Below are positions 25,012 through 58,838 of a stretch of 64,000 nucleotides of DNA, in pieces. The translations under genes and the position numbers were made by a program. Where the stretch lies: positions 6,384-70,383 of the forward strand of contig JAKLIG010000003.1 in assembly GCA_022709735.1 (NCBI GenBank). Direction: 5' to 3'. Source of the DNA: Patescibacteria group bacterium (GTDB lineage: Bacteria > Patescibacteriota > Minisyncoccia > Moranbacterales > UBA2206). Numbering within the stretch: position 1 is the stretch's first letter; every line of letters begins with the position of its first letter. The notes under the pieces were generated by a model, which was not told where the DNA came from, searched no databases, and saw only the letters and a program-made list of their open reading frames with translations.

Positions 25012-25447
25012 ACAGGGTTTCGCCCTGTCCTTAAAAAAATTTATTCGCTAAGTTTTGGATGTGATTTCGGCGCCGATGTGTCGCCGGCATTGCTTGTTTT
25101 CAGTTCCCTGCTCCCAAAAATTAAAGAACGAATCCAAAACCTAACAAATAAATTTATATCACAATCTTATGCGATTACCCGTCTCGTCGACGGGCCAACC
25201 GCTTGTCTGCCGAAGAGGCAGAAAGAGGCTGGGTCCTATATTAAAGTCTACTTGAGAGATTCATTACTGAATCAATCGCGTGCTGTACAAAACACACTCG
25301 AGATTATATAGCTCTCGTGGGCATTGCTGTTTCCGCCGATGAGGCGGGTCGACCAGCAGATGAAATCCATACTGCACGACTTTTAATTTTGACATTGAAA
25401 GTCTTAATGTGTAGTACTCTGGAATTTCATCGGTTCTCCCTAGAAAG
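25012..25447 (-). repeat. Orphan copy of the 16S rRNA 3' trailer, including the last ~27 nt of 16S (anti-SD end), ending in a cagggcgaaaccctg terminator
   Basis: Block-wise homology (about 70% overall) to 56966-57311. Shared blocks include atcgRttctccctagaaaggaggtgat, gtcgaccagc, cattgctgtt, tcattRctgaatcaat, tatcacaa..gcgatt. No 16S body upstream (a HAD gene instead). Confidence 0.7.
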
Positions 25448-25473
25448 GAGGTGATTCGTGGGAGGAATCAGGG

Positions 25474-26115
25474 TTATCCTGCCAATGTTCTTAATTTACC
25501 GATAAAATCCTCTGAATCTGCGATTTGTAAAATATCCAAACCCAATTTAGCATAAACACCGCTCTTGTCAACACAGTCGTCTATCAATAGAACGTCTCCG
25601 TATGATAATTCGTGACTTTTAAGATAATCGTCAAAGAATGGAATTGAATTCTCCCCTACATCGAACTTTAGCATCCTCTTCTCAAAAGAAACTAAAAAGT
25701 CGTCAAAATGACTGTCCAGCTTCAAGGCAGGTATCGTATATTTCAGAAAAGTATCCATATTATCTGTGGCAATCACGCAATTAGTCCCCTTTTTCTTGAG
25801 ATTGTTAATCAAGCCTAAAATTTCACTGCTAACTAATTGCATATCTTCGCAACTTTCAGCAAGGTCAGCAAGAACGACTTCCTTTGAATACCCAAATCTT
25901 TTATAAATTAGTTCAGCGATATATTTCTCATCAAATTTTGCCCTCATCCAGTCATCTATCAACTTCTTATTTTCAATAAAAACGAGACTAACGATATTTT
26001 TGTGCCAATCGTGTCTTTCGTGACTAGGACTTTCTAGTTGACTCCAAAACAAAGAATTGGAAAGTGTCTTGTTCCAATCGAAAAATATCGTTTTATACTG
26101 TTTTTGTTGCATCAT
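25474..26115 (-). CDS. HAD-superfamily hydrolase-like protein
   Basis: FFDWNKTL (degenerate motif I) and LLIDDCVDKSG (motif IV-like). Start moved to an internal Met to give a 4-nt ATGA overlap with MazG. Confidence 0.5.
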   Translation of the reverse strand: MMQQKQYKTIFFDWNKTLSNSLFWSQLESPSHERHDWHKNIVSLVFIENKKLIDDWMRAKFDEKYIAELIYKRFGYSKEVVLADLAESCEDMQLVSSEILGLINNLKKKGTNCVIATDNMDTFLKYTIPALKLDSHFDDFLVSFEKRMLKFDVGENSIPFFDDYLKSHELSYGDVLLIDDCVDKSGVYAKLGLDILQIADSEDFIGKLRTLAG

Positions 26116-26390
26116 TTCTTGAACTTCTTTTGTGCTTTCAACGCTTCTTCTATACACTTCTCTGGGTCAAATCCGAGGTCATCGCACCAACGAACAGATG
26201 ACAGAATCATATTGCCCATTTCCTTTTGTAATTCTTGTTTTGTGTGAGTTTTATTGTCCTTTGATGCATTCCTCTCCCAACGGCAAATATCGCCAAAAAC
26301 TTTTCCCATCCGAACGATGATTTGCGAAAGGGTTAATTTTTGTTTGCCCCAAATTTGTCTGCCCTGGTTTAATAAGTCTGATATTTCCAT
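26112..26390 (-). CDS. MazG-like nucleotide pyrophosphohydrolase
   Basis: 92 aa. EMGNMILSSVRWCDDLGFDPEKCIEEAL matches the MazG/HisE helical core. Confidence 0.6.
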   Translation of the reverse strand: MEISDLLNQGRQIWGKQKLTLSQIIVRMGKVFGDICRWERNASKDNKTHTKQELQKEMGNMILSSVRWCDDLGFDPEKCIEEALKAQKKFKK

Positions 26391-26411
26391 AACTTATTTA
26401 TTTAATTTTTA

Positions 26412-27068
26412 TTATTCAAACAAAACTTTTGATAATTCAGAGAAGTTAGAAACCACCATATCCGCACCAACAGACTCCAAGCGTTCCTTGGTAAAAGTTG
26501 TCGTGATGCCACACGCCTGACAACCAGCCGATTTGGCGGAGAGTATGCCATTATCCGAATCTTCTATTACCAGACACTCACTTGGTTGCTCGTTTAGTTT
26601 TTTAACCGTAACCAAATACGGCTCTGGATGCGGTTTTCCATTGCTCACATTATCCGCTGTAACCATTATTTCAAAGAAACTTTCTAAATTGAATTTTGTT
26701 AAAATTTTATCTTGCTGAACTTTTCGTCCTGAAGTTGTTAGAGCATAACGATATTTTAGGCTATTCCTCAATTTTTCCAAAAATTCATATACGCCCTCCA
26801 CTAATTGCATATCTCTTAAAGCATAGGAAAGATATAGCTCAATTTTACGCTCAATCATCTTTTCAATAGGCTCATTTCCATTCCCATATTTTTGACTGGC
26901 ATAAGAGAAAATGTCTTCTAGTTTTTTACCTCTGAAATTATCCCATTCACTTTTTAACACTTCCATACCAAATTCACGGCAAACTTCCATTTCTGCTTTT
27001 TCGTGGATAGGCTCGGAATTTACAATCACCCCATCCATATCAAATATCAACGCTTTTATATTTTTCAT
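26412..27068 (-). CDS. HAD-IA hydrolase (beta-phosphoglucomutase-like)
   Basis: IFDMDGVIV motif I. TTSGRK, GK. DSDNG motif IV. Confidence 0.75.
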   Translation of the reverse strand: MKNIKALIFDMDGVIVNSEPIHEKAEMEVCREFGMEVLKSEWDNFRGKKLEDIFSYASQKYGNGNEPIEKMIERKIELYLSYALRDMQLVEGVYEFLEKLRNSLKYRYALTTSGRKVQQDKILTKFNLESFFEIMVTADNVSNGKPHPEPYLVTVKKLNEQPSECLVIEDSDNGILSAKSAGCQACGITTTFTKERLESVGADMVVSNFSELSKVLFE

Positions 27069-27595
27069 AGATTCAGTGCTTTTTCTATATTTTCAGACCA
27101 ATTATGTCCACAATTTTCAATCTCAATGACTTGGAATCCTTTTGAACGCATAAACTGCACGGCTTCATCGTCACAGAAGAAATCATCATTCCTTCCTCTA
27201 AACATAGTCAGGTTTTCTTTGGGAATTTCATCAAGTCTTTTTGAAAAGTCAACTAATAAAAGTTTTACACACCTTACAATTTCGATTATATATTTGAAAG
27301 GGTTTTTTGTGAATTTTTGCCGTTCCAAAAACAACCCTTCGGATAAGATGAATTTAGACCATCGAATAAGCCAAATTAAAACATTTCTTTTTGGCAAGGG
27401 CGGATTGACTAAGATTAGCTTTCCTTTTCCATTCCAGTCACGCAACGCTACCAACGCACCCAGACTCAAGCCAATTATGCATACATCCTCAGCGTCTGTA
27501 TCAATCTTTCCAAACTGCATACTTAAATTGTCATACTTCCCATACAACTTTAATCCAGTCATCCATCCAGGAAGTAATAAAATTTTGTTAGTCAT
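27065..27595 (-). CDS. Alpha/beta-hydrolase (esterase-like)
   Basis: GLSLGA nucleophile elbow. His near the C-terminus. Confidence 0.5.
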   Translation of the reverse strand: MTNKILLLPGWMTGLKLYGKYDNLSMQFGKIDTDAEDVCIIGLSLGALVALRDWNGKGKLILVNPPLPKRNVLIWLIRWSKFILSEGLFLERQKFTKNPFKYIIEIVRCVKLLLVDFSKRLDEIPKENLTMFRGRNDDFFCDDEAVQFMRSKGFQVIEIENCGHNWSENIEKALNL

Positions 27596-27596
27596 A

Positions 27597-28511
27597 TCAG
27601 ATTATAAACTTTGTTACCTGCATTAAATTATCCGTATTTATTTGATGCTCATCAATAACCTCCAGATGCGGTTTGGTTCTGTCCACCAGAACAACCAGCC
27701 CAAAACCCATCTGCTCTTTAGGAGTCTGTAAATCACCGCTGAATGAATCGCCAACCATTATGGAGTTGCTAAGGTCAATTGATGAGCCATACTCTTCTGA
27801 TGCCTTCTTGATAGCCTTTTCAAAGAAGTCTCTGTGCGGTTTATCTTCTGGGTCTCCAATACTCAATATATTAAAATCAATTCCTTTTTCACGAAGCAAC
27901 TCTATCCGTTCCCTTTTTAATGCTTCGGAATAAACTGGGTCATATATAAATTTTCCGTCTGGTTGCATTTTCAATCTGGCATCACTGCTGGTCAATAAAT
28001 AAATTGGGCGATTATGAATCTTAATCTCTTTTATCAACTCAACAGCATCAGGATAGGCTGATGTTATTCTTGATAGCTCCACCCAATAAGCATCTACCGC
28101 TTCGTGGACTAATTCTGGAGTAACTGATATGCCCAATCTGTCTGATGCCATTTTTACAAATATCTCCCTGCTCCATTTCTTCATTGCCCCAAATTCTTTA
28201 ACTATGCTCGGTTGAAATTTTTCCACAGTTTGAAGCAGATTCTGAAAAGCCTCTTTTCCACCTTCAACACTTTCCCATCCCTTCTCGTTTTTTACTCTAT
28301 ATCCTGAAAGCATCAAATTGTAGTATGCGTTTACCTGATTTTTAACCGCTAAAGCAGTATCATCACCATATTTATTTTTGAATACTCGCCTAATTCCCTC
28401 TGTAGCATCGGACGAAACATCTGAAGTATCGCTAAGCGTGTCATCAATATCGAAAAACCAAACTGAATTTTCCCACTTTATTTTATCCATTTCTGAAATA
28501 CGAGCATTCAT
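27597..28511 (-). CDS. HAD-superfamily hydrolase
   Basis: FDIDDTL motif I, LLTSSD, MVGDSFSGD motif IV. Confidence 0.6.
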   Translation of the reverse strand: MNARISEMDKIKWENSVWFFDIDDTLSDTSDVSSDATEGIRRVFKNKYGDDTALAVKNQVNAYYNLMLSGYRVKNEKGWESVEGGKEAFQNLLQTVEKFQPSIVKEFGAMKKWSREIFVKMASDRLGISVTPELVHEAVDAYWVELSRITSAYPDAVELIKEIKIHNRPIYLLTSSDARLKMQPDGKFIYDPVYSEALKRERIELLREKGIDFNILSIGDPEDKPHRDFFEKAIKKASEEYGSSIDLSNSIMVGDSFSGDLQTPKEQMGFGLVVLVDRTKPHLEVIDEHQINTDNLMQVTKFII

Positions 28512-28526
28512 AGTTTTTTTACTCTA

Positions 28527-29135
28527 TTATTCCGCTTGGTGTTGCTTAATTAACTCATTCCAATTTTGTCTTGGTGAAACAGCTTTTGACCCCAACTTGC
28601 ACATAAGACAATCGTTTTCATCATATAAATTTCCTTTTTCTGATATTGCCGATATAACCTCTAAACCTGATAACACTTCGGCTCCTGAGAAATTGCCAAT
28701 TGTAAGTATTGGCGATTGAACTTTTGCACCCAGACTATTTATTATTTCAATTGTTTTCTTTATGCTACCGCCAGAATAAATATCATCACCGACTATAATG
28801 ACTTTTTCACCAGCCTTAATATCAAAATTACATAACCCAGTTTGAATATCTACATATCCAAATTTAGCCCCAGCTTGTCTTGCAAGAGCATATGCAACAG
28901 CCAAGCCAAAAGGAGGATATGATATAACCCAATCAGGTTTTATATTTCTTAAATTAAGTTCCTTTAGAAAAATGTCTTCTACGATTTCTTCAACTAACGA
29001 AACATCAGAAACTATATAGTCAGTATTCAAATACAAATCCGAATGCATTCCGCTTTCCGAGGTCTTAACGTGGAGACTAGAATCATCATACCTCCATACT
29101 GCCTTGTCGATTATTAGTTCAGGGATAGTTTTCAT
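28527..29135 (-). CDS. Phosphoribosyltransferase (type I PRTase fold)
   Basis: PRPP-binding loop VIIVGDDIYSGGS. Confidence 0.7.
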   Translation of the reverse strand: MKTIPELIIDKAVWRYDDSSLHVKTSESGMHSDLYLNTDYIVSDVSLVEEIVEDIFLKELNLRNIKPDWVISYPPFGLAVAYALARQAGAKFGYVDIQTGLCNFDIKAGEKVIIVGDDIYSGGSIKKTIEIINSLGAKVQSPILTIGNFSGAEVLSGLEVISAISEKGNLYDENDCLMCKLGSKAVSPRQNWNELIKQHQAE

Positions 29136-29137
29136 AA

Positions 29138-29473
29138 TTAAAATAATTTACCTCCAACCTCCGCAAAGTCCTTGTCAGGCGTAATTAAAATACACTTACC
29201 GTCTTTATCTGGAACACCTAGCGTCAGGGATTCAGAAACAAAAGGACCGATTTGTCTTGGTGGAAAATTTACTACGCCCAAAACCAGCTTGCCAATCAGT
29301 TCTTCCTTCTTGTAATAATCCACAATCTGAACCGATGACCGCTTTGTGCCAATTTCCGAGCCAAAATCAATAGTCAGTTTATACGCTGGTTTCTTAGCTT
29401 CAGGAAAATCATCGACTGCGATTACTTTTCCCACTCTGATGTCTAACTTTTGGAAGTCTTCTATTGTTGCCAT
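29138..29473 (-). CDS. tRNA-binding protein (CsaA/Trbp111/EMAP-like OB fold)
   Basis: 111 aa. LDIRVGKVIAV...AKKPAYKLTIDFG signature of the tRNA-binding domain. Confidence 0.75.
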   Translation of the reverse strand: MATIEDFQKLDIRVGKVIAVDDFPEAKKPAYKLTIDFGSEIGTKRSSVQIVDYYKKEELIGKLVLGVVNFPPRQIGPFVSESLTLGVPDKDGKCILITPDKDFAEVGGKLF

Positions 29474-29489
29474 ATAGTTTATTATTCAG

Positions 29490-30188
29490 TTATTTTAGAC
29501 CGATAACAGCCACCATAGCCTCGGTTACTTTTGGCTTATCTCTTCGGAAAGAAAAATATCTATCATCCTCCATTGTGCATTCTTCATTGTTTTCGATATT
29601 TTTATAATCAATACCGAGGTCAACCATTTGTTCCTTGATTATGCCCTTGAGGTCGACAAATATCTTGCCTTCTCGTCTGATTACGAACTCAGGATAACTG
29701 CCAAATCTGTCCAAAACATCATCCTTTATTTCAAAATGACAGCTATTAATTCCAGGACCCAGTGCGATTTTTAAATTCTCAGTTTTTCCACCAATACTCA
29801 GTGTTTCCTTTATCGCATTTCCAATAATTCCGCTGACTATTCCACGCCAACCGCAATGTATCACACCAATGATTTTCTTCTCAGATTCGTATAGATAAAC
29901 AGGAATACAATCTGCCATTGTAGCTGAAAGAAAGATGTTCTTATCTCTAGTTATGAGTCCATCTGCTTCCAATATGAAATTAGGGCTGGAATTATTAACG
30001 ATTTCAACCTTTATTCCGTGGACTATTTCGGCAGCAATGATTTTATTTTCACCAATCCCAATCTTTTCAAAAAACCTTTTTCTGTTTTCCAAATTCAAAT
30101 CGCTGTCCTTAAACAGTTTCATTGAGCCATCTTCTCGTTCAGACATCACCGCTAAAATTTCTGGTATATTTTGGAAAAATTTAATCAT
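29490..30188 (-). CDS. YfiH/PgeF-family (DUF152) purine nucleoside phosphorylase / laccase-domain protein
   Basis: ADCIPV...VIHCGWRG conserved His/Cys/His triad region. Confidence 0.7.
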   Translation of the reverse strand: MIKFFQNIPEILAVMSEREDGSMKLFKDSDLNLENRKRFFEKIGIGENKIIAAEIVHGIKVEIVNNSSPNFILEADGLITRDKNIFLSATMADCIPVYLYESEKKIIGVIHCGWRGIVSGIIGNAIKETLSIGGKTENLKIALGPGINSCHFEIKDDVLDRFGSYPEFVIRREGKIFVDLKGIIKEQMVDLGIDYKNIENNEECTMEDDRYFSFRRDKPKVTEAMVAVIGLK

Positions 30189-30456
30189 TTTTAACATCAA
30201 ACTGAATTATTTGAAATCCATATTTATCAATATCTTCCTGCGACCAAAAAGACACGTCCTTGGTTTTTATGATATAGGTCGCAGTTGTTTCAATTTTCCT
30301 GCCAGTATATTCCTGCTTGTCTTTGTCCCATTCTTCCAAAACCAACGTGTCACCATCATTAACTTCAAAATCAGCCAGACGAAGTTCAAACTTTTTCTTT
30401 CCAGCCATTATTTTATCAAAGTATTCTTTCCAAACTTTCTTGTGAATAGTTGCCAT
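30181..30456 (-). CDS. ASCH/PUA-like small protein
   Basis: 91 aa. KKFELRLADFEV...GDTLVLEEWD resembles the ASCH beta-barrel. Confidence 0.45.
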   Translation of the reverse strand: MATIHKKVWKEYFDKIMAGKKKFELRLADFEVNDGDTLVLEEWDKDKQEYTGRKIETTATYIIKTKDVSFWSQEDIDKYGFQIIQFDVKND

Positions 30457-30459
30457 ATT

Positions 30460-30768
30460 TTATGTTTTAATAATTTTCTTTATCACTGCGTCAACGAACA
30501 ACCGAAATGCTGGACGATTCTCCTTATCATAAATAATCTTAACTCCCAGTATATGCCCATTAGAGCAAGCTAGCATATTTTTGGTCAGCGAAAATTTCGC
30601 ATTGATTATTCGGTCGACATACATCCTTCGTAAGTTACCAGAACCATCTTTTTGATAGCGACAAATACTAACGCCACATTTTTCACAAGAGATGTTTAAT
30701 AATCTTGAATGACCACCTCTTATTATTCTGTATTTGTCGTTCTTTAATTTTATCTTCGTGTCATTCAT
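30460..30768 (-). CDS. Hypothetical Cys-containing protein
   Basis: 102 aa. CEKCG...C pattern. No clear family. Confidence 0.4.
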   Translation of the reverse strand: MNDTKIKLKNDKYRIIRGGHSRLLNISCEKCGVSICRYQKDGSGNLRRMYVDRIINAKFSLTKNMLACSNGHILGVKIIYDKENRPAFRLFVDAVIKKIIKT

Positions 30769-31397
30769 ATTTTTATTTCTTCACCATCCCCTACCAATTT
30801 ATAATTATCACCTTCTACCAAAATCGCCTGACCATCCTTTAATACCTTGGTCTCATATCGGCTTTGGGAAATCCTTTCTTTTAACAACTCCCTGTAGTCT
30901 GGGTCATAATGTGCCTTAACTAAAAATGGCACCAGATTCATTGCGGTCAAATCCGTTACTCCAAATCTATCTTTTTCTTCGCCTGGTTTTTTCCAAGTGG
31001 ACATTTCAATCGTGGGGCAGGCTATATAACTTCCAGCACTTGAGCCAATATAGACCGCACCCTCATCAATCATTTCTGCTAGAACCTTATCAAAACCACT
31101 TTCACGCACAGCCTTTAACAAATAAAAAGTATTTCCGCCTTCAACATAAATAGCATTTTTATCTTTTAACAATTCTCGCAAGTCATTTTCAGTTTTACCT
31201 TCAATGTCCAACACATCAAAATTATACCCCTCTTTGTCTAACATTTCTTTGTATCTTTCAATATAGCCCCTGTTTTGGCTTCCATTTCCTGCCGTTATGA
31301 TGTAAGCCATTTTTATTTTAGAAATATCATCAAACAAAAGCCTTAAGCCTTTTTCTATAACAAAATCACTGTTTGACGATAGTAATAATTTTCTCAT
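30765..31397 (-). CDS. pepE: Peptidase E (S51 dipeptidase)
   Basis: GGNTFYLL and GSSAGS catalytic Ser motif. Confidence 0.7.
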   Translation of the reverse strand: MRKLLLSSNSDFVIEKGLRLLFDDISKIKMAYIITAGNGSQNRGYIERYKEMLDKEGYNFDVLDIEGKTENDLRELLKDKNAIYVEGGNTFYLLKAVRESGFDKVLAEMIDEGAVYIGSSAGSYIACPTIEMSTWKKPGEEKDRFGVTDLTAMNLVPFLVKAHYDPDYRELLKERISQSRYETKVLKDGQAILVEGDNYKLVGDGEEIKI

Positions 31398-31400
31398 AAA

Positions 31401-31988
31401 TTAAACCTGATGCCTCTTGCTTTTGCTAAATTCAAAATCAACTTGCTTCAAATAGTCTTCCACTTCGTCTGTAAGCAATGTGATAGAATTATCCAGCGTT
31501 ATAAACTCAGTTGAATTACTTTCCGTATCATAAATTGCAAATGTCGCTTTGCCAGTTTTATGTGCCGAAATTTCACCTGGGTTTACCACCAAGCAGTCCC
31601 CAATCTTTTCCTCATTTTTCAAATGGTTATGTCCATAAAACACTGCGTCATATTCACCTGATTTTGCCATTGGCTTCGCAATGTCAGGATAATGAGTCGC
31701 AAAAATCCTTTTGCCACCAAATTCCAAGAAATCATAAATGCTATCACTCACTGTCAAATTACTAGCTGGATTTAGCGAAGTTTTAGTTATAACTGATTTA
31801 TCTCCATCGTTATTTCCCCAGACAGCAAAAACAGGAATTTTTGAAGTAGCCAAAACCTTTGCCACACCATTATTCATAAAGTCACCCAGAAAAATAATCT
31901 GCTCGCATTTTTCTTGTTCAATTCTTTTTAATGCTAAAATAATGTTGTGAAAATTTTCGTGTATGTCAGATATGACTGCAATTTTCAT
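31401..31988 (-). CDS. Metallophosphoesterase (YfcE/MJ0936-like)
   Basis: ISDIHEN, GDFMNNG, GHNH motifs. Confidence 0.7.
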   Translation of the reverse strand: MKIAVISDIHENFHNIILALKRIEQEKCEQIIFLGDFMNNGVAKVLATSKIPVFAVWGNNDGDKSVITKTSLNPASNLTVSDSIYDFLEFGGKRIFATHYPDIAKPMAKSGEYDAVFYGHNHLKNEEKIGDCLVVNPGEISAHKTGKATFAIYDTESNSTEFITLDNSITLLTDEVEDYLKQVDFEFSKSKRHQV

Positions 31989-32010
31989 ATGATTTATTTT
32001 ATTAAATTAT

Positions 32011-32598
32011 TTACAATTTTAATTCCGCTATATTTATAAAGTCTATTCCAGCATTTTTGCCTGCACCCTCATCCGCCTTACTGTTGCCAATAATCAGATA
32101 TTCCGATTTCGGATTATTTTTATCATACACCAGATTAAACCCTTCTGGGTTAGGCTTGATAAAATTCACATCATTGCGAGCAACAACCTTGTCGAAAAGA
32201 GTATCTATTTTCAGCTCCTTTAATATCGGCATCACTGTCCGCTGGTCATTAGACGTCCATATATACAGATTCGCATATTCTTTTGCCAACTTTATAAGAG
32301 GCAACACTACTGGTGACAATTCATATCCAGAATAATAATCTTTTTCATTTTTGTAGCTTATTTCCAGTATTTCATCCCTTGCTTCTTTACCGCCTTTTTC
32401 AATACAGACGTTTTGAGCATTTTGAAAACCAAATTCTGACGGATTGAATCCTATCTCATAGCGAGAAGCAACTTCCTCTATTTCTTTGCACCAATTATCC
32501 CAATTAATCAGCAATTCGCAAATCGTCTCATCAAAATCAAAAATGATGTGCTTTTTATTTTTCTCTTTTATGAAATTTTCAAATTCTTGTATGTTCAT
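32011..32598 (-). CDS. HAD-superfamily hydrolase
   Basis: IIFDFDETI motif I. GNSKADEGAG motif IV-like. Confidence 0.55.
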   Translation of the reverse strand: MNIQEFENFIKEKNKKHIIFDFDETICELLINWDNWCKEIEEVASRYEIGFNPSEFGFQNAQNVCIEKGGKEARDEILEISYKNEKDYYSGYELSPVVLPLIKLAKEYANLYIWTSNDQRTVMPILKELKIDTLFDKVVARNDVNFIKPNPEGFNLVYDKNNPKSEYLIIGNSKADEGAGKNAGIDFINIAELKL

Positions 32599-33143
32599 TT
32601 TGCACTCAAATCTTTAATCCGATTAAAAACACTTTGATATTCCTCATCCACAACCGAAGCTATAAACTCTTTTCTTTCATCTTCGGTCAGATGAAAAATT
32701 TTATCGATTTTCCAAAACTCCAAACTAGTCGCCATTCCGTCTTCCAATTTCAAATCTTTTGCATCCCCATTAAATTCATAGGCATAAACTCGCTTAATCG
32801 TGTTGTTTTTCATCCCTGTTTTTTCATCCACACTGCTCCGTCTCATCTTGGTGATATAAATTAAGTCTTTTTCCTCGGCTTTTATACCAGTTTCTTCCTC
32901 CAATTCTTTAACGGCTGTCTTCAAATAATCATCGCCAATTTCCACGTGTCCGCCCACAGAAGCATCTAGCAGGTCAGGATAAGTGTCTTTATTTTTAGCT
33001 CGCCTTTGAAATAATATCTCACCATTCTTATTGTAAATCCAAACGTGAATCTCACGATGAAGCAATCCATTTTTATGGATGTTTTCTCTCGTGTCTTTTC
33101 CGACAATGTTGTCGTTTTCGTCTATGATATTTAGCTCTTGCAT
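32595..33143 (-). CDS. NUDIX hydrolase (paralog of 7145..7693)
   Basis: 182 aa. Nudix box AVKELEEETGI. Same length and same N- and C-termini (MQELN...LSAK) as the core-genome copy. Confidence 0.7.
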   Translation of the reverse strand: MQELNIIDENDNIVGKDTRENIHKNGLLHREIHVWIYNKNGEILFQRRAKNKDTYPDLLDASVGGHVEIGDDYLKTAVKELEEETGIKAEEKDLIYITKMRRSSVDEKTGMKNNTIKRVYAYEFNGDAKDLKLEDGMATSLEFWKIDKIFHLTEDERKEFIASVVDEEYQSVFNRIKDLSAK

Positions 33144-34213: not shown

Positions 34214-34322
34214 AGTATTTTATATCATTTTTATGCTCTGATTATATCATTTATGATATAAAAGGTCAATAAGCAAGCTACTTATTGTCAATGCGTGGCT
34301 AATATAAGCCATTTTTATTATA

Positions 34323-34538
34323 TCATTGCTGCGATGGCTTTTTCACCTTTCCCCTACCGTCAATATAGATACTTTTACAATCATTCTCGTTTCCAATAAT
34401 TCTGGTATAAAATTCGCAACCATCGACAGCTATGGCTTTGCATTCACAACAAGTCATCTTTTTATTGGTGTCATAAGAAATTCTATCTCCACACCTTAAA
34501 CATTCGACATACGCCCCTTTCTTTAGTTTTTTGTTCAT
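34323..34538 (-). CDS. Small Cys-rich (zinc-ribbon-like) protein
   Basis: CLRCGD...CCEC...C pattern. Start moved to the internal Met to avoid overlap with the integrase. Confidence 0.35.
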   Translation of the reverse strand: MNKKLKKGAYVECLRCGDRISYDTNKKMTCCECKAIAVDGCEFYTRIIGNENDCKSIYIDGRGKVKKPSQQ

Positions 34539-34603
34539 TTTGTTTATGTATATGTTATAAAATGTTGATATTCTATAACATATGTATGTTTTTATGTTAT
34601 AAA

Positions 34604-35518: not shown

Positions 35519-35572
35519 CGGATTTCATTGTTTGTCCGATGTTACCTTCGTGTCAAATTAAGTCAAATCGAG

Positions 35573-44856: not shown

Positions 44857-44865
44857 CAGCTAGAC

Positions 44866-47775: not shown

Positions 47776-47790
47776 AATTTTATTAGTTTA

Positions 47791-48048: not shown

Positions 48049-48080
48049 ACTTTTTAATGTTAAATTTAATTATTTTACTT

Positions 48081-49136: not shown

Positions 49137-49311
49137 ATTACTTTTGCATCTTACTTTCTTCACCGTAGCAAATTTTAATCCTGTAAATGGGTGCTGATGT
49201 TTTTGAAATTTCCATCGTTTGCAAATATCCGTTTCTTCATCGTCTCTATTTTTAGGGTAACAAAAAACACCCACATAAATGGGTGCCGATGTTTTGTAAA
49301 TTTTGAGGTAT

Positions 49312-50532: not shown

Positions 50533-51432
50533 TCAGTAGTGAAGGTATTGCTCGTGAGCCTGTTTTGCCTTCTCCGTATCCTGAAGACCGACATAATATC
50601 GAATTGTTGTATCAAGGCGTTCGTGACCGAGCAGGGTCTTAATCTCGGTGAAGGGGCAGTTATTGAACGCTAGGTGCGAAGCAAAGCAGTGGCGGAGACT
50701 GTGTGGCGTAATGTGCTTATTCAGCTTCGCTTTATTTCTAGCGTTCTTAAAATATCTCGTTAAATCCTGATTCTTAAGCCGTCTCACAGTTTTGTATTTT
50801 ACAAAATAGGAAGTAACAAAAATTGCTTCGTGTGTATCCTTTCTGCGATTCATATATTGCTCAATCCAAGATATGGCATCATCAGTAAAAAACACGACTC
50901 GTTCTTTATTCCCCTTTCCGATAATTCTTGCTTCTCTATTTGTGTAATCGATAGAATTTCGATTCAAGCTAAGTGCTTCGCTAATACGCATTCCACTTCC
51001 GAGTAAAACTTCGACTAATGTCCTAAACCTTAATCCTGAAAGTGTTTTTGTATTTATGGATTCTCTGAAGCGTTTAATCTCATCGGAATTTAAGTAGACC
51101 ACTTCACGCCTTGGACGCTTGGGAATCGTGATTATGTCTGGATTGATTTGAAGCTGGGCGGAGTAGTGTTCACGATAGTATTTCAGAAGTCCTTTGATAC
51201 AAGCGAGACAGACTCCAATGAAAACTTCTGAATTTTCTCGTTGGTGTAGAATCTGTTTCAGTTTGAAAATATGTTCCATCGTGAATTTCTCCAATTCTAT
51301 GTCGCCAACATCCCTGACAAAGCATTTTAGTCTAGACCGATAACTAACGATTGAACTCTGAGCAAAGCGTTTTTCAACTTGTAGCCAAGTTAGAAATTCC
51401 TCACCTGTGTTTTTTATTGTTCGTGCTTCCAT
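50533..51432 (-). CDS. Tyrosine recombinase/phage integrase
   Basis: 299 aa. GMRISEAL (catalytic R), HSLRHCFAS, LLGHERLDTTIRYY. Confidence 0.85.
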   Translation of the reverse strand: MEARTIKNTGEEFLTWLQVEKRFAQSSIVSYRSRLKCFVRDVGDIELEKFTMEHIFKLKQILHQRENSEVFIGVCLACIKGLLKYYREHYSAQLQINPDIITIPKRPRREVVYLNSDEIKRFRESINTKTLSGLRFRTLVEVLLGSGMRISEALSLNRNSIDYTNREARIIGKGNKERVVFFTDDAISWIEQYMNRRKDTHEAIFVTSYFVKYKTVRRLKNQDLTRYFKNARNKAKLNKHITPHSLRHCFASHLAFNNCPFTEIKTLLGHERLDTTIRYYVGLQDTEKAKQAHEQYLHY

Positions 51433-51598
51433 ATTTTATTTTATATTTATCGTAGTTGAGCATAATGTCGAAGCAGTCTTTATTGCTGAGCATCTCGCCA
51501 TATTTGATTGCAATCAGGCGAACTGCGTTGATGTCATACATATTGGTGAGTCCGCTTTTCCTTACTTTTTCAAAGGTTATAAATTTAGCTTTTGTCAT
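51401..51598 (-). CDS. Small hypothetical protein upstream of the integrase
   Basis: 65 aa, overlaps the integrase start. Confidence 0.3.
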   Translation of the reverse strand: MTKAKFITFEKVRKSGLTNMYDINAVRLIAIKYGEMLSNKDCFDIMLNYDKYKIKYGSTNNKKHR

Positions 51599-51727: not shown

Positions 51728-52861
51728 CTAGTTTTCTTGGAATTTAAGTTTCCGTATTTTGATTAACGGATACAGCCCAATTAAAAGAAAAATTGCCACC
51801 GAAGTAGCCATTAAAAGCATCATTGAAAATTTATCCAGTATTATTCCGCCAGTAAACATAAAGGCTGTTGCTCCTGCACGAATAAGCAGACTATTTAGAG
51901 AAAGAACACTAGAACGCACTGATTTTGTAATAACTGCATTCATATCAACCATAAGTTTTGTTTCAAAATATCCACGCATCAAATGAGCAACAAACATTCC
52001 AGCAAGGGCAATTATTGGCAAGCTGGTTATTCCAACGGACAAAACAGCAACTAACAAAATAAGCGTTGCGATAACAACATTCAATTTTGAAAATTTCTCG
52101 TAAAACTTTATTCCAACCGCTATGAGCAGTGTAGCGATGCCTGCCAATACGCCCCAAGAAGCAACGTTAAGTCCCAGACTTAAAAACAACGGATTATACA
52201 ACCACTTAAAACTGAAGAAAAAGGCACCTATCAGAGCAGAAACAATCATTATGTTCAAAAGCTGTTTATTGGTTACCGCATATTTCAAACCTTCAATGCC
52301 GACACCAATCAGATTATTATTTTCAGTTTTTCCTCGCACTCTGATTTTGGTCGTGATAACCATAACTGACGCACCAATAAGGAAAACAGCTGTAAGATAT
52401 AACGGAATTCTCAAATCAATTGCAGAGACAAAACCACCAATTGAAACAGCTAAAAATGTCACGATTATCCCATACGCCTTAACTTGCGAATAATCCTTTT
52501 TGAAATTATTGGACACTGTATGCAGAAGAGCATTGTCGCTTCCTGATACAAGAGACCCACCTAATGCCAACAAAAACAGCGTTAGTCCATAAAACCAAAT
52601 AGTGCCTGAAAGTGAAAGCAATATATATGACAAGGCAAGAATTATGTATCCCCAGAACACGGATATTCTGTGAGAATAATAATCCCCAATAACACCAGTC
52701 GGATATTCCAAAAGAACGCTCATCACATAATAAAAACCTATAAGCTGAAAAACGAGAGCCGTAGAAATATCCCTGCTGGTTAAATATAAAACCATCGTTG
52801 CCACCCAAAAGCGTGCAGAGAAAAGTATTTTTGCTATTTTTACTTTTGTCAGGTCAGTCAT
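51728..52861 (-). CDS. MFS-type transporter
   Basis: About 12 predicted TM helices. Start moved to the internal Met so the upstream terminator/motif region is intergenic. Confidence 0.6.
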   Translation of the reverse strand: MTDLTKVKIAKILFSARFWVATMVLYLTSRDISTALVFQLIGFYYVMSVLLEYPTGVIGDYYSHRISVFWGYIILALSYILLSLSGTIWFYGLTLFLLALGGSLVSGSDNALLHTVSNNFKKDYSQVKAYGIIVTFLAVSIGGFVSAIDLRIPLYLTAVFLIGASVMVITTKIRVRGKTENNNLIGVGIEGLKYAVTNKQLLNIMIVSALIGAFFFSFKWLYNPLFLSLGLNVASWGVLAGIATLLIAVGIKFYEKFSKLNVVIATLILLVAVLSVGITSLPIIALAGMFVAHLMRGYFETKLMVDMNAVITKSVRSSVLSLNSLLIRAGATAFMFTGGIILDKFSMMLLMATSVAIFLLIGLYPLIKIRKLKFQEN

Positions 52862-52885
52862 AAATATATGATACCACAAAAGCAC

Positions 52886-52908
52886 AGCGGAGCGGAGCTG
52901 TGGACTCA
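52886..52908 (-). promoter_or_regulatory. Intergenic GCGGAGCGG-family motif instance (one of seven between 51660 and 55345)
   Basis: agcggagcggagctgtggactca. On the coding strand it lies just upstream of tggtatcat (extended -10-like) and the MFS start. Confidence 0.45.
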
Positions 52909-52911
52909 TAC

Positions 52912-52931
52912 AAAAAACAGGGTTTTCCCTG
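52912..52931 (-). terminator. Intrinsic terminator of the SHOCT gene
   Basis: Minus strand: acagggaaaaccctgt followed by tttttg. Confidence 0.55.
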
Positions 52932-52949
52932 TTTCCGTAAAATTCTTCA

Positions 52950-53210
52950 TTATTGCAAGTCTTTCTTCTTCGTCTCAAATTCTTCCTTGTTTATTTCCCC
53001 TTTGGCATAACGTTCTTTGAGAATATCCAAAGGCGTTTTTTCTCCGTGCTCTTTATGATTACCGTGTCCGCAACAACCGTGTCCCATTCCGCCACGAATT
53101 AAAACGATGATTCCCCAAATAACCAACCCCCAAAATACCAGCATAAAAATGAAGCCAAAGCCTCCACCCCAGCCATACCCCATCATATTACCCCACGAAT
53201 TCCACATCAT
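52950..53210 (-). CDS. SHOCT-domain small membrane protein with His/Cys-rich segment
   Basis: 86 aa. Gly/Trp-rich TM, GHGCCGHGNHKEHGE, C-terminal SHOCT-like LKERYAKGEINKEEFETKK. Confidence 0.5.
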   Translation of the reverse strand: MMWNSWGNMMGYGWGGGFGFIFMLVFWGLVIWGIIVLIRGGMGHGCCGHGNHKEHGEKTPLDILKERYAKGEINKEEFETKKKDLQ

Positions 53211-53261
53211 ATATTTGTTTGTTTACGATACTAGATATTACGTTTAACTGAGCCTTTTATT

Positions 53262-53684
53262 TCAAGCGGAGCGGTGGACTAAAAATTTGGAAAAATAATA
53301 TCCACCCACAAAGGCAAGAGTGTGAACAGTCCCAAAAGCCAGACCAGTTCCAAAAAGTTCCATTCCCAGAAAAGTTAGACCGCTCAAGGAAATTCCAGCA
53401 GGATAAAAATCAAACATCAAAGGGAGAATGTTGTAATATATGCCGAATATCGATGCAACAACAATTCCTCCAATAATTACTTTTGTAAATTCTTTCTTGC
53501 TTACATCGATAAAAGAGATAAAAAGTATTGAAAAGACAAGATATAGAACGAATTTCACTATGAAATATGGCAAGGTTTCCATAGGATTGGAAAACAATAA
53601 GTGCGAAAAATAGTCGATGCCATAAACACCAACAATGGATATTATTATTGCCCTAAATACTATTTGAAAATAATTTCTTTTCAT
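53262..53684 (-). CDS. Integral membrane protein (hypothetical)
   Basis: 140 aa, 4 TM helices. Stop codon overlaps a GCGGAGCGG motif. Confidence 0.45.
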   Translation of the reverse strand: MKRNYFQIVFRAIIISIVGVYGIDYFSHLLFSNPMETLPYFIVKFVLYLVFSILFISFIDVSKKEFTKVIIGGIVVASIFGIYYNILPLMFDFYPAGISLSGLTFLGMELFGTGLAFGTVHTLAFVGGYYFSKFLVHRSA

Positions 53685-53845
53685 TGTTTTTTTTGTTAAT
53701 GATTTACTGCCTTCATTATACCACTTTTACACCAACATAAAAGCGGAGCGGAGTAGTAGTAAGCACGAAAATTGCCCCCCTTCGCTTGTTCCATATGACT
53801 TTTAATGTTAGCTTATAGTTAGCTTAAAAATTAATTCTTTATTCT

Positions 53846-54568
53846 ATGCTAGAATTTATTATCTCTGGTTTTTTATTCACTTATGTTGGCGGATTATTTA
53901 TCCCAATTCTTTTGCGTTTTTTAATCGTAAGAAGACCAATAGGGAAATTTTTAGCAATTCTCACTGTCGGAATTGTTTTCATTGTGCAGTATTTAACGGT
54001 TGTAGCATTAAACCCTGTAAGAAAAACACACATTCCCCTTTTTATAGTGGCATATATCGGATATCTGATATTGCGTAAAAGTTCAAGTAAAGAAACAAAT
54101 AAAAACTTAGACAAAAATGATAACGCACACGCAGTAAGAGCACCGAAGCATAATCATTCTATAAAAGATATTCTGCTCAATAAGAAAGCCTCTGATTTTT
54201 GGCTATATCTCATCGGAGCAATACTGCTTGCTCTTTCAACAACTGCAAGAGGGACATCATCCAGAACACTTGAGGATATACTGAGCGAACAAACCTCTTT
54301 GATACCAACACTTATGAATAATGATTTTCTTAGGCTTTCTTTAATCTATGTTTTTTGTGTTTCGCTATATTTTGCCTTTATGAAATACAAGGAATCGAAA
54401 ATGAACATTGTTTTTGTTTTTATTATCATTGGAATAACATTCAATCCATTCTTTGATTTTCACTTCGGCAACGGCTTTGGAGACATACTCAAATTGGCTA
54501 CCGCAGTATTGTTCGGATACTTTTGCTATCAGGAATACAAAAAGCTGAATACCAGTATTGTAAACTGA
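53846..54568 (+). CDS. Integral membrane protein (hypothetical). Only convincing plus-strand gene in the window
   Basis: 240 aa, multiple TM helices. Divergent from 53262..53684. Confidence 0.5.
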   Translation: MLEFIISGFLFTYVGGLFIPILLRFLIVRRPIGKFLAILTVGIVFIVQYLTVVALNPVRKTHIPLFIVAYIGYLILRKSSSKETNKNLDKNDNAHAVRAPKHNHSIKDILLNKKASDFWLYLIGAILLALSTTARGTSSRTLEDILSEQTSLIPTLMNNDFLRLSLIYVFCVSLYFAFMKYKESKMNIVFVFIIIGITFNPFFDFHFGNGFGDILKLATAVLFGYFCYQEYKKLNTSIVN

Positions 54569-54604
54569 CATTCTTCTTTGAACTAAACAGCCTATTGCCA
54601 AAAC

Positions 54605-54629
54605 GAAAACCGCCAGTCTATGACGGTTT
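54605..54629. terminator. Bidirectional terminator between convergent genes
   Basis: aaaaccg-ccagtctatga-cggtttt. 7-bp stem with A/T runs on both sides. Confidence 0.5.
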
Positions 54630-54660
54630 TTATAGTCTCAACGCAGAGCGGAGCGGTGGA

Positions 54661-55260
54661 CTAACTTCTACTTGCCAAGATTAACTCCTTGAGCCTGCTA
54701 TCCATATCCTCGCTGATTTGCAGATGTTTGGGAAAAACGCTGTCACTTTCAACATCATTACTTCCAAAGGGTAAAATAAAGACGTTGCCACTTTCAGGGT
54801 CATTTCCAAAAACTACTTTTATACCTTCTTTTTCAAACCTTTTAATCAAATCATCTATGGGAGTGCAAAGACCTTCCAATTCTACATCATTGGCTTTCAA
54901 TTTTGGATAACTTTCAGGGTTAATTCCAGAAAAAGGAATACTCTCCTGCACCTCACTAAGTTCTTTCGTTAAAGCGATAATCCTTTTCTTTCTATCTTCT
55001 CTAGTCTCCGCTTCTGATTTTTCTGCTTCAATTTTTCTCAACTTGTCAGGACTGATTCTGTAGGAAGGACTGCGTGTTCCAGCTTCATCCAAGTTCATTA
55101 CCACATAAAGACCATCCACTTTTTGATAGTTCAAAACCACCACCTTTTGCCCCTCGGTTGTCATCATCACGCTCTTATTTTCATATTCGGCTTCCTTGCC
55201 TGCGTGTTCAGTCGGATTGCTCGTGTCACCAGTTGGCATTTCAAATTCAAATTTTGGCAT
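54661..55260 (-). CDS. Hypothetical acidic protein
   Basis: 199 aa ORF. Stop overlaps a motif instance. Motif plus tgtgataaaat upstream. Confidence 0.4.
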   Translation of the reverse strand: MPKFEFEMPTGDTSNPTEHAGKEAEYENKSVMMTTEGQKVVVLNYQKVDGLYVVMNLDEAGTRSPSYRISPDKLRKIEAEKSEAETREDRKKRIIALTKELSEVQESIPFSGINPESYPKLKANDVELEGLCTPIDDLIKRFEKEGIKVVFGNDPESGNVFILPFGSNDVESDSVFPKHLQISEDMDSRLKELILASRS

Positions 55261-55425
55261 AATTTTGTATTCTATGAATAATTAGCTCTGGTTTTATTTT
55301 ATCACAAACACTTAAGATACAAAAGCAGAGCGGAGTAGTGGCAAATTTAGACAAAATAAAAGAGGGGTTCAGCTACAGATTGCTCCGTAACCAAATCCCT
55401 CTCGTTTGTTCATCGTTGTGAATCC

Positions 55426-55764
55426 CTACCCTCCGAGGTCGATGTGCTCGAAAATCCTGAAGGGCAATGACAGCTTCATCTTCTTGAAGATGCTGTTCAC
55501 TTTCCGCAGAGTCTTTTCAGCCTCCTTCGCAACGGATGGATGATAAAGGTTAGAATCGTTCAGTTCAGGAGTCCACGACATTTCCTGAACGACAACCCCT
55601 ATCCCCACTGTTCTTCCGTGCATTGCGATGGTTTTGAAAATTAGACCGTCCTTTTCCACGCCCTCGAAATTTTCCTCGATAGCTTTGATAAATGGATGTT
55701 GGATGTAGCCAATGTTTTCGCTTGGCACTCCCACCCATAGCACGTATTCAGCGTGCGTTCCCAT
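55426..55764 (-). CDS. Hypothetical protein
   Basis: 112 aa ORF. Confidence 0.35.
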   Translation of the reverse strand: MGTHAEYVLWVGVPSENIGYIQHPFIKAIEENFEGVEKDGLIFKTIAMHGRTVGIGVVVQEMSWTPELNDSNLYHPSVAKEAEKTLRKVNSIFKKMKLSLPFRIFEHIDLGG

Positions 55765-55774
55765 TTGCTTCCTC

Positions 55775-56773
55775 CTATTCGTATTCTCGTTTGATGAATC
55801 TCAAAGCCAGTTGCTTCTTCGCCTCGATGTCCCCTTTCGTATATTCCACTTTGTGATGCAGGATGTCCCAGCCTAGTATGCCGATATTTCTAAAAGCAAA
55901 GACCAATTTCACTTCGGCTTCGTCAAACTCAGAAAGATATTGCTTCATCCATTTCTGAATAGAAGCGAACATCTGCTCCTCGTTCTCCGCCTTGAGAAAC
56001 ATAAAATCCAGTGCCCTCAGAAAATCGTGATAGCCTCTTCCAGCTCTCGGCACAGCATTGAGGTCGATAAGATAAATATCTTCACCAGAAACGAGTATGT
56101 GGTCACCGATGATATTGCCGTGAACCCAGCCGAAGAAGTTTTTGCCCTTCCTATTGATGACCTCCTCAAATTCTTGCTTAAGTTGTTGCACCAACGAAAA
56201 GTCAATCAACCCAGCGTCCACAATCGGCTTGCTCCACATATTGAGTCTGGAGAAAAGCCATTCTTGACCATCAGCTAGAAGATTTCCAAGAGATTGCGTT
56301 TTCTGAACTTCTTGGATAACCAACTGATAACTATCCGCAACTTTCTTACTAACCTCCACGCACCAGTCTGGCTTTTTGTCGTAGAGGTCGTTGAGGAATT
56401 GCCCCTCAACTTCTTCCAATAGAATCCAGCTCTCGCCTTGCTTGATGATAGCTGGAACTTTGAAGTAAAGCTGTGCTTCCATCTGTTTGGCGGTCTTGAG
56501 CAGTTGAGTCTGGAAAGGGTCAATCCTACCAGTCTTGAGAATCAGGCGATTGCCTTGTGCGTCTTTCACTCTGGCAACAGTCTTCTTCTGACGGAAAAAC
56601 TCGGTCTCCATCAATTGAAGATTGTTCTCCCTGATGATAGTTTCCATATCCACCATTGGCTCTTTTTCATCCTCCTGTTTTTGTGTGGCTTGGTTGGTCA
56701 TAATCCTGTTGAGCAAATTATAAAGCAATCTGCTATAAAACGATGCCTTAATTATAGCACAGCGAATACCCAT
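55775..56773 (-). CDS. Protein-kinase-like (aminoglycoside/choline kinase family) phosphotransferase
   Basis: 332 aa. VHGNIIGDHILV (catalytic-loop-like) and IDLN (DFG-equivalent). Confidence 0.5.
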   Translation of the reverse strand: MGIRCAIIKASFYSRLLYNLLNRIMTNQATQKQEDEKEPMVDMETIIRENNLQLMETEFFRQKKTVARVKDAQGNRLILKTGRIDPFQTQLLKTAKQMEAQLYFKVPAIIKQGESWILLEEVEGQFLNDLYDKKPDWCVEVSKKVADSYQLVIQEVQKTQSLGNLLADGQEWLFSRLNMWSKPIVDAGLIDFSLVQQLKQEFEEVINRKGKNFFGWVHGNIIGDHILVSGEDIYLIDLNAVPRAGRGYHDFLRALDFMFLKAENEEQMFASIQKWMKQYLSEFDEAEVKLVFAFRNIGILGWDILHHKVEYTKGDIEAKKQLALRFIKREYE

Positions 56774-56965
56774 CTCAGAACCTCCTGCGGTTAAGGTTTA
56801 TATCTGAATAGTGATTATCTATTCTGTTTTCAAACAACTATGACTTTAATTTGTAGCACGAATATAATCTATAATCAAGCGTTTTCTGGGTAGGGAACGG
56901 AGGATATAAAATTGCTGAAAAACCCTCCCTAGAATTGAATCATTTCCTAGCAAGCCAACGCAAAA

Positions 56966-57297
56966 AACACCATTTAAGGTGTTTTCGCAGAAATGCGTTC
57001 AGCAAAAAGTAAATAAGTATCACAACCTATTGCGATTCCCCAATCCCTTGCGAGATTAGGGCTGTTAGCCCTCGCTAACAGAGTCCTTTTAGAGTCTATT
57101 CTGAGTGATTCATTGCTGAATCAATGCATATGCTTGTCTCAAACATACGACTACAGATTATTTGGCTCTGATACGCCATTGCTGTTCTCTAATAAATTAG
57201 AGTCGACCAGCGGATAACTACCAATGCTCTCCATCATAGTTGATGACAACTATAACTTCTACTAGAGTGCATTTCTCGATAGCTATCGATTCTCCCT
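56966..57297 (-). other. 16S rRNA 3' trailer (processing-stem partner of the 5' leader) ending in a terminator
   Basis: Trailer segments (gaatagactc; aatcgcaataggttgtgata) are complementary to leader segments at about 58960-59050 (gagtctattc; tatcacaattttttgcgatt). Terminator aacaccttaaatggtgtt followed by tttttg at 56966-56983. Confidence 0.6.

Positions 57298-58838
<1,541 letters not shown>

Follow-up and report, generated by a model that had tools for sequence, protein, structure and literature searches.

The interval from 25.4 to 57.3 kb of the 64,000-nt stretch of Patescibacteria DNA analysed here (contig JAKLIG010000003.1; the whole stretch is referred to below as the window) is probably a composite integrative island that entered by site-specific recombination at a short core straddling the 3' end of the mature 16S rRNA. 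An integrase-borne island at this position, supplying a replacement for the 16S trailer, had been proposed in the initial annotation of the sequence, and the proposal is supported by the recurrence of the arrangement in related organisms, by the linkage of an integrase family to the site, by the variable content between the repeats and by a nearly empty site (L188; loci are referred to by their L numbers). The stretch corresponds to a metagenome contig, NODE_348 of ENA ERZ795054, and the closest relatives of the encoded proteins are named Moranbacteria or Moraniibacteriota (Parcubacteria within Patescibacteria).

By textbook rule, islands and prophages integrate at the 3' ends of tRNA and tmRNA genes, and to our knowledge rRNA genes are regarded as almost never being used for this purpose. 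A 2026 survey of 430,134 proviruses assigned only 0.01% of RNA-gene targets to rRNA genes (PMC13626063), and the TIGER survey mentions no rRNA target (PMC7192596). The earlier remark that the 16S 3' end is not a described attachment (att) target also held, in that full-text literature searches returned engineered 16S insertions only and no natural element with an att site at the 16S 3' end.

The duplicated 16S end and its trailers

The core, a 27-nt sequence (ATCGRTTCTCCCTAGAAAGGAGGTGAT), occurs exactly twice in the window (Table 1), in direct orientation and 31,856 nt apart, in agreement with the direct repeats about 31.8 kb apart that were first described; no match is expected by chance, even at up to 3 mismatches (0 in 100 shuffles). 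Its overlap with mature 16S had been overestimated at about 20 nt: only the final 12 nt of the gene (57300-57311) fall within it, and no more than 12-14 nt of mature 16S are duplicated. Beyond the core the two segments diverge at once on the 16S side, and on the other side some 330-400 nt align at about 70% identity with conserved blocks, so that the block-wise homology noted beyond the core is real and, as the alignment confirmed, not confined to the anti-Shine-Dalgarno 12-mer. The block of identity thus begins in the last 12-14 nt of 16S and extends 3'-ward, as in tRNA-targeting elements. We call the 16S-adjacent segment trailer A and the orphan segment trailer B. Both had been recognised correctly, with limits that needed revision: the orphan copy, given as 25012-25447, extends to 25455, and the homology of the 16S-adjacent trailer (56966-57311) to its relatives reaches down to about 56890.

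A profile hidden Markov model (HMM) of 62 related trailers gave only two matches on the transcribed strand of the window (E = 1e-63 and E = 2e-47); it also matched the opposite strand of the 16S leader, at 59023-59088, which shows the complementarity between leader and trailer. No extra degenerate copy of core or trailer was found inside the island, either by a core search with 3 mismatches or by nhmmer with the trailer profile, and a division of the island into tandem elements by degenerate internal att copies was ruled out, since there are just two copies in the window. A 22-mer, TTCTCCCTAGAAAGGAGGTGAT, is the usual 16S 3' end plus start of the spacer in many phyla, as a scan of a genome collection showed, and is for this reason not lineage-specific; it is trailer homology and the orphan state that make the finding specific. 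When the 22-mer was used as a control across phyla, 107 of 111 usable matches were 16S-linked, and all four orphans belonged to this Parcubacteria lineage. A reading of the core on the plus strand, as a perfect Shine-Dalgarno sequence followed by GTG at 25459, was dropped, as it yields a 15-codon open reading frame (ORF) opposite to all genes.

A hairpin with a U-run behind it forms the end of both trailers (-13.2 kcal/mol for trailer A and -12.8 kcal/mol for trailer B by direct folding). In 57 non-redundant members of the trailer family RNAalifold predicted 40 base pairs, 26 of them with compensatory double changes. Since RNAduplex comparisons of leader and trailer are uninformative for long sequences, an explicit helix search was used instead, and in it both trailers proved collinear in their pairing with the window's own 16S leader: leader positions -21..-11 pair with the invariant TTTCTAGGGAG, positions -120..-110 with GAATAGACTCT of trailer A and its counterpart in trailer B, and positions -207..-187 with AATCGCAA..TTGTGATA of both. 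Given this structure, the leader pairing and the terminal hairpin with U-run, the trailers are predicted to be 16S 3' external spacers, composed of the 3' halves of processing stems and a terminator. They do not represent a known RNA family, since Rfam returned nothing credible in gathering mode or in the permissive E-value mode. An ordinary 16S-23S intergenic spacer was likewise ruled out, because there is no tRNA or 23S gene within 64 kb and because the trailers end in hairpin and U-run within about 350-440 nt. The window holds a single 16S gene and no match to a second RNA family (Rfam), nor any tRNA, tmRNA, 23S or 5S gene (Rfam, ARAGORN); the 16S is a stand-alone transcription unit. Because trailer A carries its own hairpin and U-run, transcription from the rRNA promoter probably does not read through into the island, which would be insulated from it; this weakens the original idea that integration placed island transcription directly downstream of that promoter.

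As to which trailer is native, trailer A has relatives elsewhere, at 82-96% identity and partly in orphan contexts, namely at 96% in L161, at 90% in L167, at 87-88% in L010 and L136, where they are orphans behind a tRNA synthetase gene (88% over 426 nt in L010), and at 82% in L130 and L175, where a protein 91% identical to the 332-aa protein of the window comes after the orphan. No relative of trailer B exceeds 74%. The hairpin CAGGGCGAAACCCTG with its U-run is common to the end of the helicase gene and the end of the orphan trailer (22990 and 25012), the surrounding regions (22978-23013 and 25000-25035) being 86% identical over 36 nt, much as the initial annotation had stated. From this difference in relatives, and also from the terminator shared with the adjacent helicase gene and the fit to its own leader, trailer B is probably the displaced native trailer and trailer A the element-borne one, an assignment that had been suggested before and that these comparisons strengthen.

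The start of the core is repeated as a short second copy at 56925-56940 (plus strand, CTCCCTAGAA; transcribed strand, TTCTAGGGAG), which lies just beyond the terminator of trailer A, about 370 nt downstream of the end of 16S and close to where the homology to L010 ends. The motif CCTCCGTTC recurs past the terminator of trailer A and past the MFS terminator at ~51670. The 16S-end 22-mer is also present twice in a draft contig of an actinobacterium (L008, Collinsella tanakaei YIT 12063), at 2168-2189 and at 2840-2861, on the same strand and 672 nt apart, both copies apparently being preceded by 16S-like sequence.

Recurrence in relatives and linkage to integrases

A metagenome scan with a trailer-specific pattern produced 65 loci, which, pooled with the genome loci, gave 74 copies of the trailer in related Parcubacteria, 39 of them after a 16S gene and 35 orphan. 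In all 35 orphans, whose intact 19-nt core was demanded by the search pattern, homology begins at the same 16S nucleotide, between ..A(T/A) and CACCTCC. These orphans lie behind at least five unrelated classes of upstream junction, with no trace of 16S upstream of any orphan junction. The junction J1 (..CTGATTCCTCCCACGAAT) was seen in about a dozen loci (L093, L119, L128, L142, L145, L151, L153, L157, L162, L178).

All four junction types expected of att recombination were observed. The order 16S, core, trailer and Int4 (one of the integrases described below) is found in L123, L132, L139, L164, L165, L171, L176, L181, L187 and the window, and the order junction, core, trailer and host genes in the window and in L093. 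An attP-like or tandem junction, in which a non-16S junction precedes core, trailer and Int4, is present in L162, L145, L177 and L155; L162 and L145 have J1 at this position, as expected between tandem elements. Finally, 16S, core and trailer are followed by genes not associated with mobile elements in L188, L147 and L138, and 16S genes with a trailer of the same family and no downstream integrase are known from these three loci and from L127, L174 and L178. The spacing between a 16S-linked copy and an orphan was 1.7, 6.8, 12.8, 18.8, 31.9 and 33.1 kb. At 12.8 kb, L187 has the classical form of a defence island, with an integrase at either end and the same repeats as its borders: it reads 16S end, core, trailer, Int4-like integrase, type III restriction-modification, GmrSD/Schlafen, Int1-like integrase, protease, junction, core and trailer. 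The arrangement of the window itself is reproduced in independent assemblies, two further assemblies with the island having been recovered by exact-protein look-up.

The interval encodes three intact Xer-like integrases and one that is split into three ORFs. Int4 (Pfam Phage_integrase, 5e-38) lies 5.9 kb from the core in the window, and its homologues (59-87% identity) are encoded on the same strand as the trailer and 0.3-3 kb downstream of it at more than 15 loci, often with the same small ORF first; this linkage is seen after 16S genes and after orphan junctions alike. Intact counterparts of the split integrase, Int3, follow Int4 in L207, L209, L211, L139, L162 and L176, and homologues of Int1 and of the Fic protein are found upstream of J1 orphans. 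To start independently from the integrase side, and so to avoid circularity, we picked three Int4 homologues (68-76% identical) just for their large contigs, one of which is a 1.27 Mb genome. All three lie 0.5-3.5 kb after a complete 16S gene, on the same strand. The module order after those 16S genes is small ORF, Int4, a protein without known family, Int3-type integrase, small ORFs, methyltransferase, ParB, TerS, TerL and 144-aa protein; the same order holds in L207 to L211, Int2 following the 144-aa protein in L207. TerL is 83-86% identical in L207-L210 and 51% identical in L211. The higher protein identities occur where 16S nucleotide identity is just 82-89%, and a TerL identity equal to or above that of 16S points to horizontal spread and is hard to explain otherwise.

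A 40-nt motif precedes the small ORF and Int4, and a second copy precedes Int1. The two copies are direct and 83% identical, and contain TTGACT and a 7-nt palindrome, CTTCGTG..CACGAAG. The motif sits between trailer and Int4 in L123, L132, L164 and L165, and its half-site CACGAA is also present in the J1 junction beside the orphan core. The motif may serve as a promoter-operator or else as a second recombination site that delimits an inner element of 16 kb. Logan contigs of the same strain from another sample (SRR5007146; L202 and L002) end at ~57206, within trailer A, at ~51621, precisely where the 40-nt motif ahead of Int4 has its edge, and at ~33203, within the 3' end of the Fic gene, and the segment from 33.2 to 51.6 kb may be strain-variable or multi-copy. 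An inner unit within the composite island is suggested by the position of the motif upstream of Int4 and Int1 together with the contig breaks at ~51621 and ~33203.

Probable site-specific integration and its alternatives

Site-specific recombination is favoured by the constancy of the 5' edge of homology, by the association with one specific integrase family and by the occurrence of all four junction types. In the mechanism that we propose, the island, or elements ancestral to it, would have recombined at the core of the single 16S gene seen in the window by means of the small Xer-like tyrosine recombinases that they encode, with the Int4 family on the 16S side and usually a second paralogue. 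The attP site would carry the last 12-14 nt of 16S, anti-Shine-Dalgarno included, followed by a full functional 3' external spacer of about 300-400 nt, comprising the 3' processing-stem halves that pair with the leader, internal hairpins and a terminator. After integration, element DNA would complete the 16S gene and trailer A would act as the working, terminated trailer, the native trailer B having been pushed to the far end, behind J1 and ahead of the host helicase gene. The cargo would consist of a variable left part, the integrase-methylase-ParB-terminase module that is spread among Moranbacteria, the KAP NTPase, and Int1-Fic with a housecleaning cluster. We infer that the integrases catalysed the event and that the crossover took place within 7 nt, TTTCTAG, that are flanked by CCTCC and GGAGA as imperfect inverted repeats, a geometry that resembles an anticodon stem-loop.

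What appears to be the best approximation to an empty site is L188, a contig that begins within the 3' end of 16S. Its one trailer, closed by a similar hairpin, is followed by three small ORFs over 2 kb, by the closest homologue of the window's helicase (69% identical), 2.5 kb after the 16S, and by RsgA downstream; there is no second core in its 14 kb. The synteny of 16S, helicase and RsgA therefore exists with 2.5 kb in place of 32 kb.

Several observations weigh against the island as an integrase-driven, mobile entity. L188 belongs to another species, its helicase being just 69% identical, and still has 2 kb of unassigned ORFs at the site, so that the expected island-free allele is only approximated; more distant helicase homologues have unrelated neighbours, without conserved synteny. 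Exact-protein look-ups of the helicase, the 332-aa protein and the GH1 protein led to island-bearing or broken contigs, with no island-free allele of the same strain and no excised circle or attP read among them, and the attP-like junctions (J1, core, trailer, Int4) were seen only inside the arrays of L162 and L145. In viral contigs of IMG/VR neither the trailer pattern nor a relative of Int4 or TerL was found. Int3 is probably a pseudogene in the window, a simple terminator scan flagged neither trailer hairpin, and the conservation of the Int4 family with its frequent 16S adjacency could also fit an old, fixed neighbour. The island is well supported as an architecture and a family; as an active element it is putative, and parts of it may continue to be mobile.

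A further point of this kind concerns the paired copies in L187, L178 and L134/L143, which share identical blocks of 75-150 nt at differing positions in the trailer. Such a mosaic means that homologous recombination or gene conversion also acts, and could have made some of the insertions. Taken as a general explanation, a Campbell-type exchange would involve a circle with a captured 16S end and trailer, recombining anywhere in about 400 nt, while the integrases would be incidental or serve other sites. Besides the mosaic blocks, this would fit the duplication of a whole trailer and not of a short core alone. However, random capture would not give the same 5' edge in 35 orphans of at least five junction classes, the identity in the window amounts to 27 nt within 70% similar flanks, which is a poor RecA substrate, and a specific integrase family is tightly linked to the site, so that we consider this explanation unlikely. 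Alternatively, the module from Int4 to TerL and the duplicated trailer might have been passed on vertically since ancient times and now form an immobile part of the rrn locus, for instance as a domesticated element, and what we see would be ordinary gene order. The Int4 family is indeed very conserved (758 members at E <= 1e-40, in more than 100 clusters at 59-97% identity), all of its named members come from Moranbacteria, and it is adjacent to 16S in most cases; the broken Int3, the missing same-strain allele and the absence of viral-contig relatives in IMG/VR point the same way. Yet such a fixed feature is very unlikely in view of the same-trailer 16S genes that have no integrase (the six loci named above), the presence of the module after non-16S orphans in L162, L145 and L177, the TerL identities that equal or exceed those of 16S, and a content between the copies that varies from 1.7 to 33 kb.

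Very improbable, finally, is the view that the orphan was left by the decay of a second rrn operon, or that it is a small RNA gene of its own or a 3' untranslated region element which starts with the anti-Shine-Dalgarno by chance. Orphans do retain a conserved secondary structure, a terminator and an intact 19-nt core, although the latter was demanded by the search pattern; against this, upstream of the junctions there is integrase, Fic or cargo sequence and nothing of 16S, the boundary nucleotide is identical in all junction classes, trailer B still fits its own 16S leader like a displaced partner, and no Rfam family corresponds to the orphan. Site-specific integration at the 16S end accordingly remains the reading that we prefer.

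Gene content and relation to known elements

The gene list first given for the interval was confirmed by Pfam, NCBIfam and PHROGs, on which the assignments below rest, except that its fourth tyrosine integrase is the one split into three ORFs. Nearly all window genes share the strand of the 16S. Downstream of the latter, on the minus strand, the order is trailer A, left cargo, the 65-aa ORF with Int4, a 392-aa protein, Int3, small ORFs and radical SAM, D12 methyltransferase, ParB, TerS, TerL, the 144-aa protein, Int2, KAP NTPase, Int1, DUF7695, Fic/Doc, a run of hydrolase genes, the orphan core, trailer B, helicase, patatin and RsgA.

Table 1. Positions of the features discussed, in window coordinates, ordered from the 16S leader to the host flank.
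Feature	Position	Strand	Basis and remarks
16S leader, 5' half of processing stems	58843..59344	-	complementary to both trailers (helix search; trailer HMM)
Complete bacterial SSU rRNA (16S), putative integration target	57300..58842	-	Rfam RF00177, 1427 bits, model positions 1-1533 of 1533
Putative attL core	57285..57311	-	ATCACCTCCTTTCTAGGGAGAATCGAT on transcribed strand; exact match
Trailer A, 16S-adjacent, predicted 3' external spacer	56890..57299	-	hairpins; terminator-like hairpin and U-run 56948-56983
Left-end cargo: 332-aa protein, small ORFs, DUF6804 (plus strand), SHOCT, MFS transporter	51728..56773	-	Pfam
40-nt motif upstream of small ORF and Int4, AGTGGATAACTC..TTGACT..CTTCGTGtgcCACGAAGCTAA	51624..51663	-	repeat family D10
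Small ORF (65 aa, 51401-51598) and Int4, Xer-like tyrosine recombinase (50533-51432)	50533..51598	-	Pfam, NCBIfam
Int3, second Xer-like recombinase, in three ORFs	48144..49274	-	Pfam, PHROGs
Phage- or satellite-like module: small ORFs, radical SAM, D12 methyltransferase, ParB, TerS, TerL, 144-aa protein, Int2	38877..48143	-	Pfam, PHROGs
KAP-family P-loop NTPase	35573..38158	-	Pfam 9e-34; NCBIfam QatA 2e-19, under curated cut-off
Second copy of 40-nt motif, upstream of Int1	35542..35581	-	repeat family D10
Int1 (Xer-like), DUF7695 protein, Fic/Doc protein	33146..35518	-	Pfam; module recurs upstream of J1-type orphans
Right-end housecleaning-type cluster	25474..33143	-	Pfam
Putative attR: element-side junction J1 (..CCTGATTCCTCCCACGA, 25456-25477) joined to core 25429-25455	25429..25477	-	
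Trailer B, orphan copy	25012..25428	-	alignment to trailer A; terminator hairpin 25012-25027
Host flank: UvrD-like helicase, patatin, RsgA	20950..24919	-	Pfam

The 32 kb or so are a composite of modules and not one simple element. No capsid, portal or tail genes were found between the copies with Pfam and PHROGs, several small ORFs being without assignment, and a complete prophage was ruled out, since only TerS, TerL, integrases, ParB, methyltransferase and weak replication-initiator matches (among the small ORFs of the module) are present. Int1 is 84% identical in L142, and Fic proteins 80-98% identical adjoin orphans in L157, L174 and L093. The right-end cluster contains four HAD proteins, MazG-like, NUDIX, PRTase, tRNA-binding domain, Cu-oxidase_4, ASCH, S51 peptidase and metallophosphoesterase genes, and HAD and MazG homologues precede J1 orphans in L178 and L153 too. 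Its NUDIX gene (32595-33143) has a paralogue outside the island at 7145-7693, with stretches of 75-85% nucleotide identity at a spacing of 25,450 (repeat families D4 and D20). The KAP NTPase is possible defence cargo. In the 1.27 Mb Moraniibacteriota genome (L207, 2616-5597) a 993-aa KAP NTPase is encoded upstream of the 16S, whereas that of the window lies inside the island, and there seems to be a clustering of such genes near the rrs locus.

Other observations concern the 16S gene and its surroundings. A 108-kb contig from the same sample (L205, ERZ795054 NODE_162) carries an identical GH1 protein and the genes upstream of it, equivalent to about 58029-64000 of the window, and terminates inside the 16S at ~58029 (window numbering), near the position of a 16S insertion in L080; it may represent a second strain or an alternative assembly path. 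L080 itself (Parcubacteria SO_2017_SWC_36, 2281-5690) has two insertions, of about 1.0 and 0.9 kb, that split the 16S at rrs ~791 and ~1410, with one ORF in each (255 aa and 156 aa); they resemble introns, and such insertions have been reported for 16S genes of the candidate phyla radiation. At 4130-4257 of the window, dense AT-rich direct and inverted repeats (units such as ATTGAAAATTGTAAATT) lie between two minus-strand genes.

Among known systems, islands with a tyrosine integrase that occupy the 3' ends of tRNA or tmRNA genes (P4-type; Islander/TIGER class, PMC7192596) come closest; they work alike and differ in their target. As in those islands, a tyrosine recombinase is encoded and its gene adjoins one att site, the flanking repeats begin in, and overlap, the 3' part of an RNA gene, the element restores the gene, here left intact over the full Rfam model, while the original 3' part is displaced to the far end, and there are tandem arrays and variable cargo that includes defence genes. 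Unlike them, the island described here targets the 16S rRNA gene, replaces only 12-14 nt of mature RNA, carries 300-400 nt of structured spacer with stem halves and terminator, and uses small Xer-like integrases, without arm-binding domain and usually paired.

The XerC/XerD-dif system and the integrative mobile elements exploiting Xer (IMEX, such as the CTX phage) share with the window Xer-like recombinases of about 300 aa and a short, imperfectly symmetric site of about 27-28 nt that is duplicated on insertion, but here the recombinases are element-encoded and the site is in 16S. This identity was rejected: the best integrase scores, 158-193 bits, are far below the XerC/XerD equivalog cut-offs of 330-335 (NCBIfam), and the site is not a terminus dif, since GC skew stays negative in all 2 kb intervals between 1 and 64000 and does not change sign at either core copy. 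Phage satellites and phage-inducible chromosomal islands resemble the module in gene content, in that they too have about 10-13 kb with integrases, replication-initiator-like ORFs, ParB, methyltransferase and TerS/TerL and lack structural genes, whereas our module has no known helper phage or regulatory link and no IMG/VR relatives. The eukaryotic retrotransposons R1/R2 and the transposon Pokey likewise specialise on a highly conserved site in an rRNA gene; they differ in that they retrotranspose or transpose, disrupt a 28S copy and rely on many rDNA copies, while here a single 16S gene stays intact.

A family of elements in a lineage of the candidate phyla radiation seems to have become specialised on those 20-odd nucleotides that are the most conserved in bacteria. 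One could go further and suppose that by replacing the 16S 3' spacer the elements seize part of 16S maturation (stem pairing, sequestration of the anti-Shine-Dalgarno by the invariant AGGGAG, termination), that orphans are expressed and act on ribosome biogenesis or on Shine-Dalgarno sites, and that carriage alters translation capacity, a scenario that we regard as quite unlikely. Integration at the 16S end would extend the use of tRNA genes by islands to a ribosomal RNA gene, kept working by the carriage of a complete structured spacer that must match the 16S leader of the host, and would provide a case in which co-evolution of a mobile element with rRNA processing can be tested. It would also explain the breaks and the odd neighbours of 16S contigs of these organisms in metagenome assemblies and bins. 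As possible tools, the elements offer compact Xer-like integrases whose target sequence is near-universal in bacteria, and for these small-genome symbionts the 16S end would be a hotspot for defence and toxin cargo.

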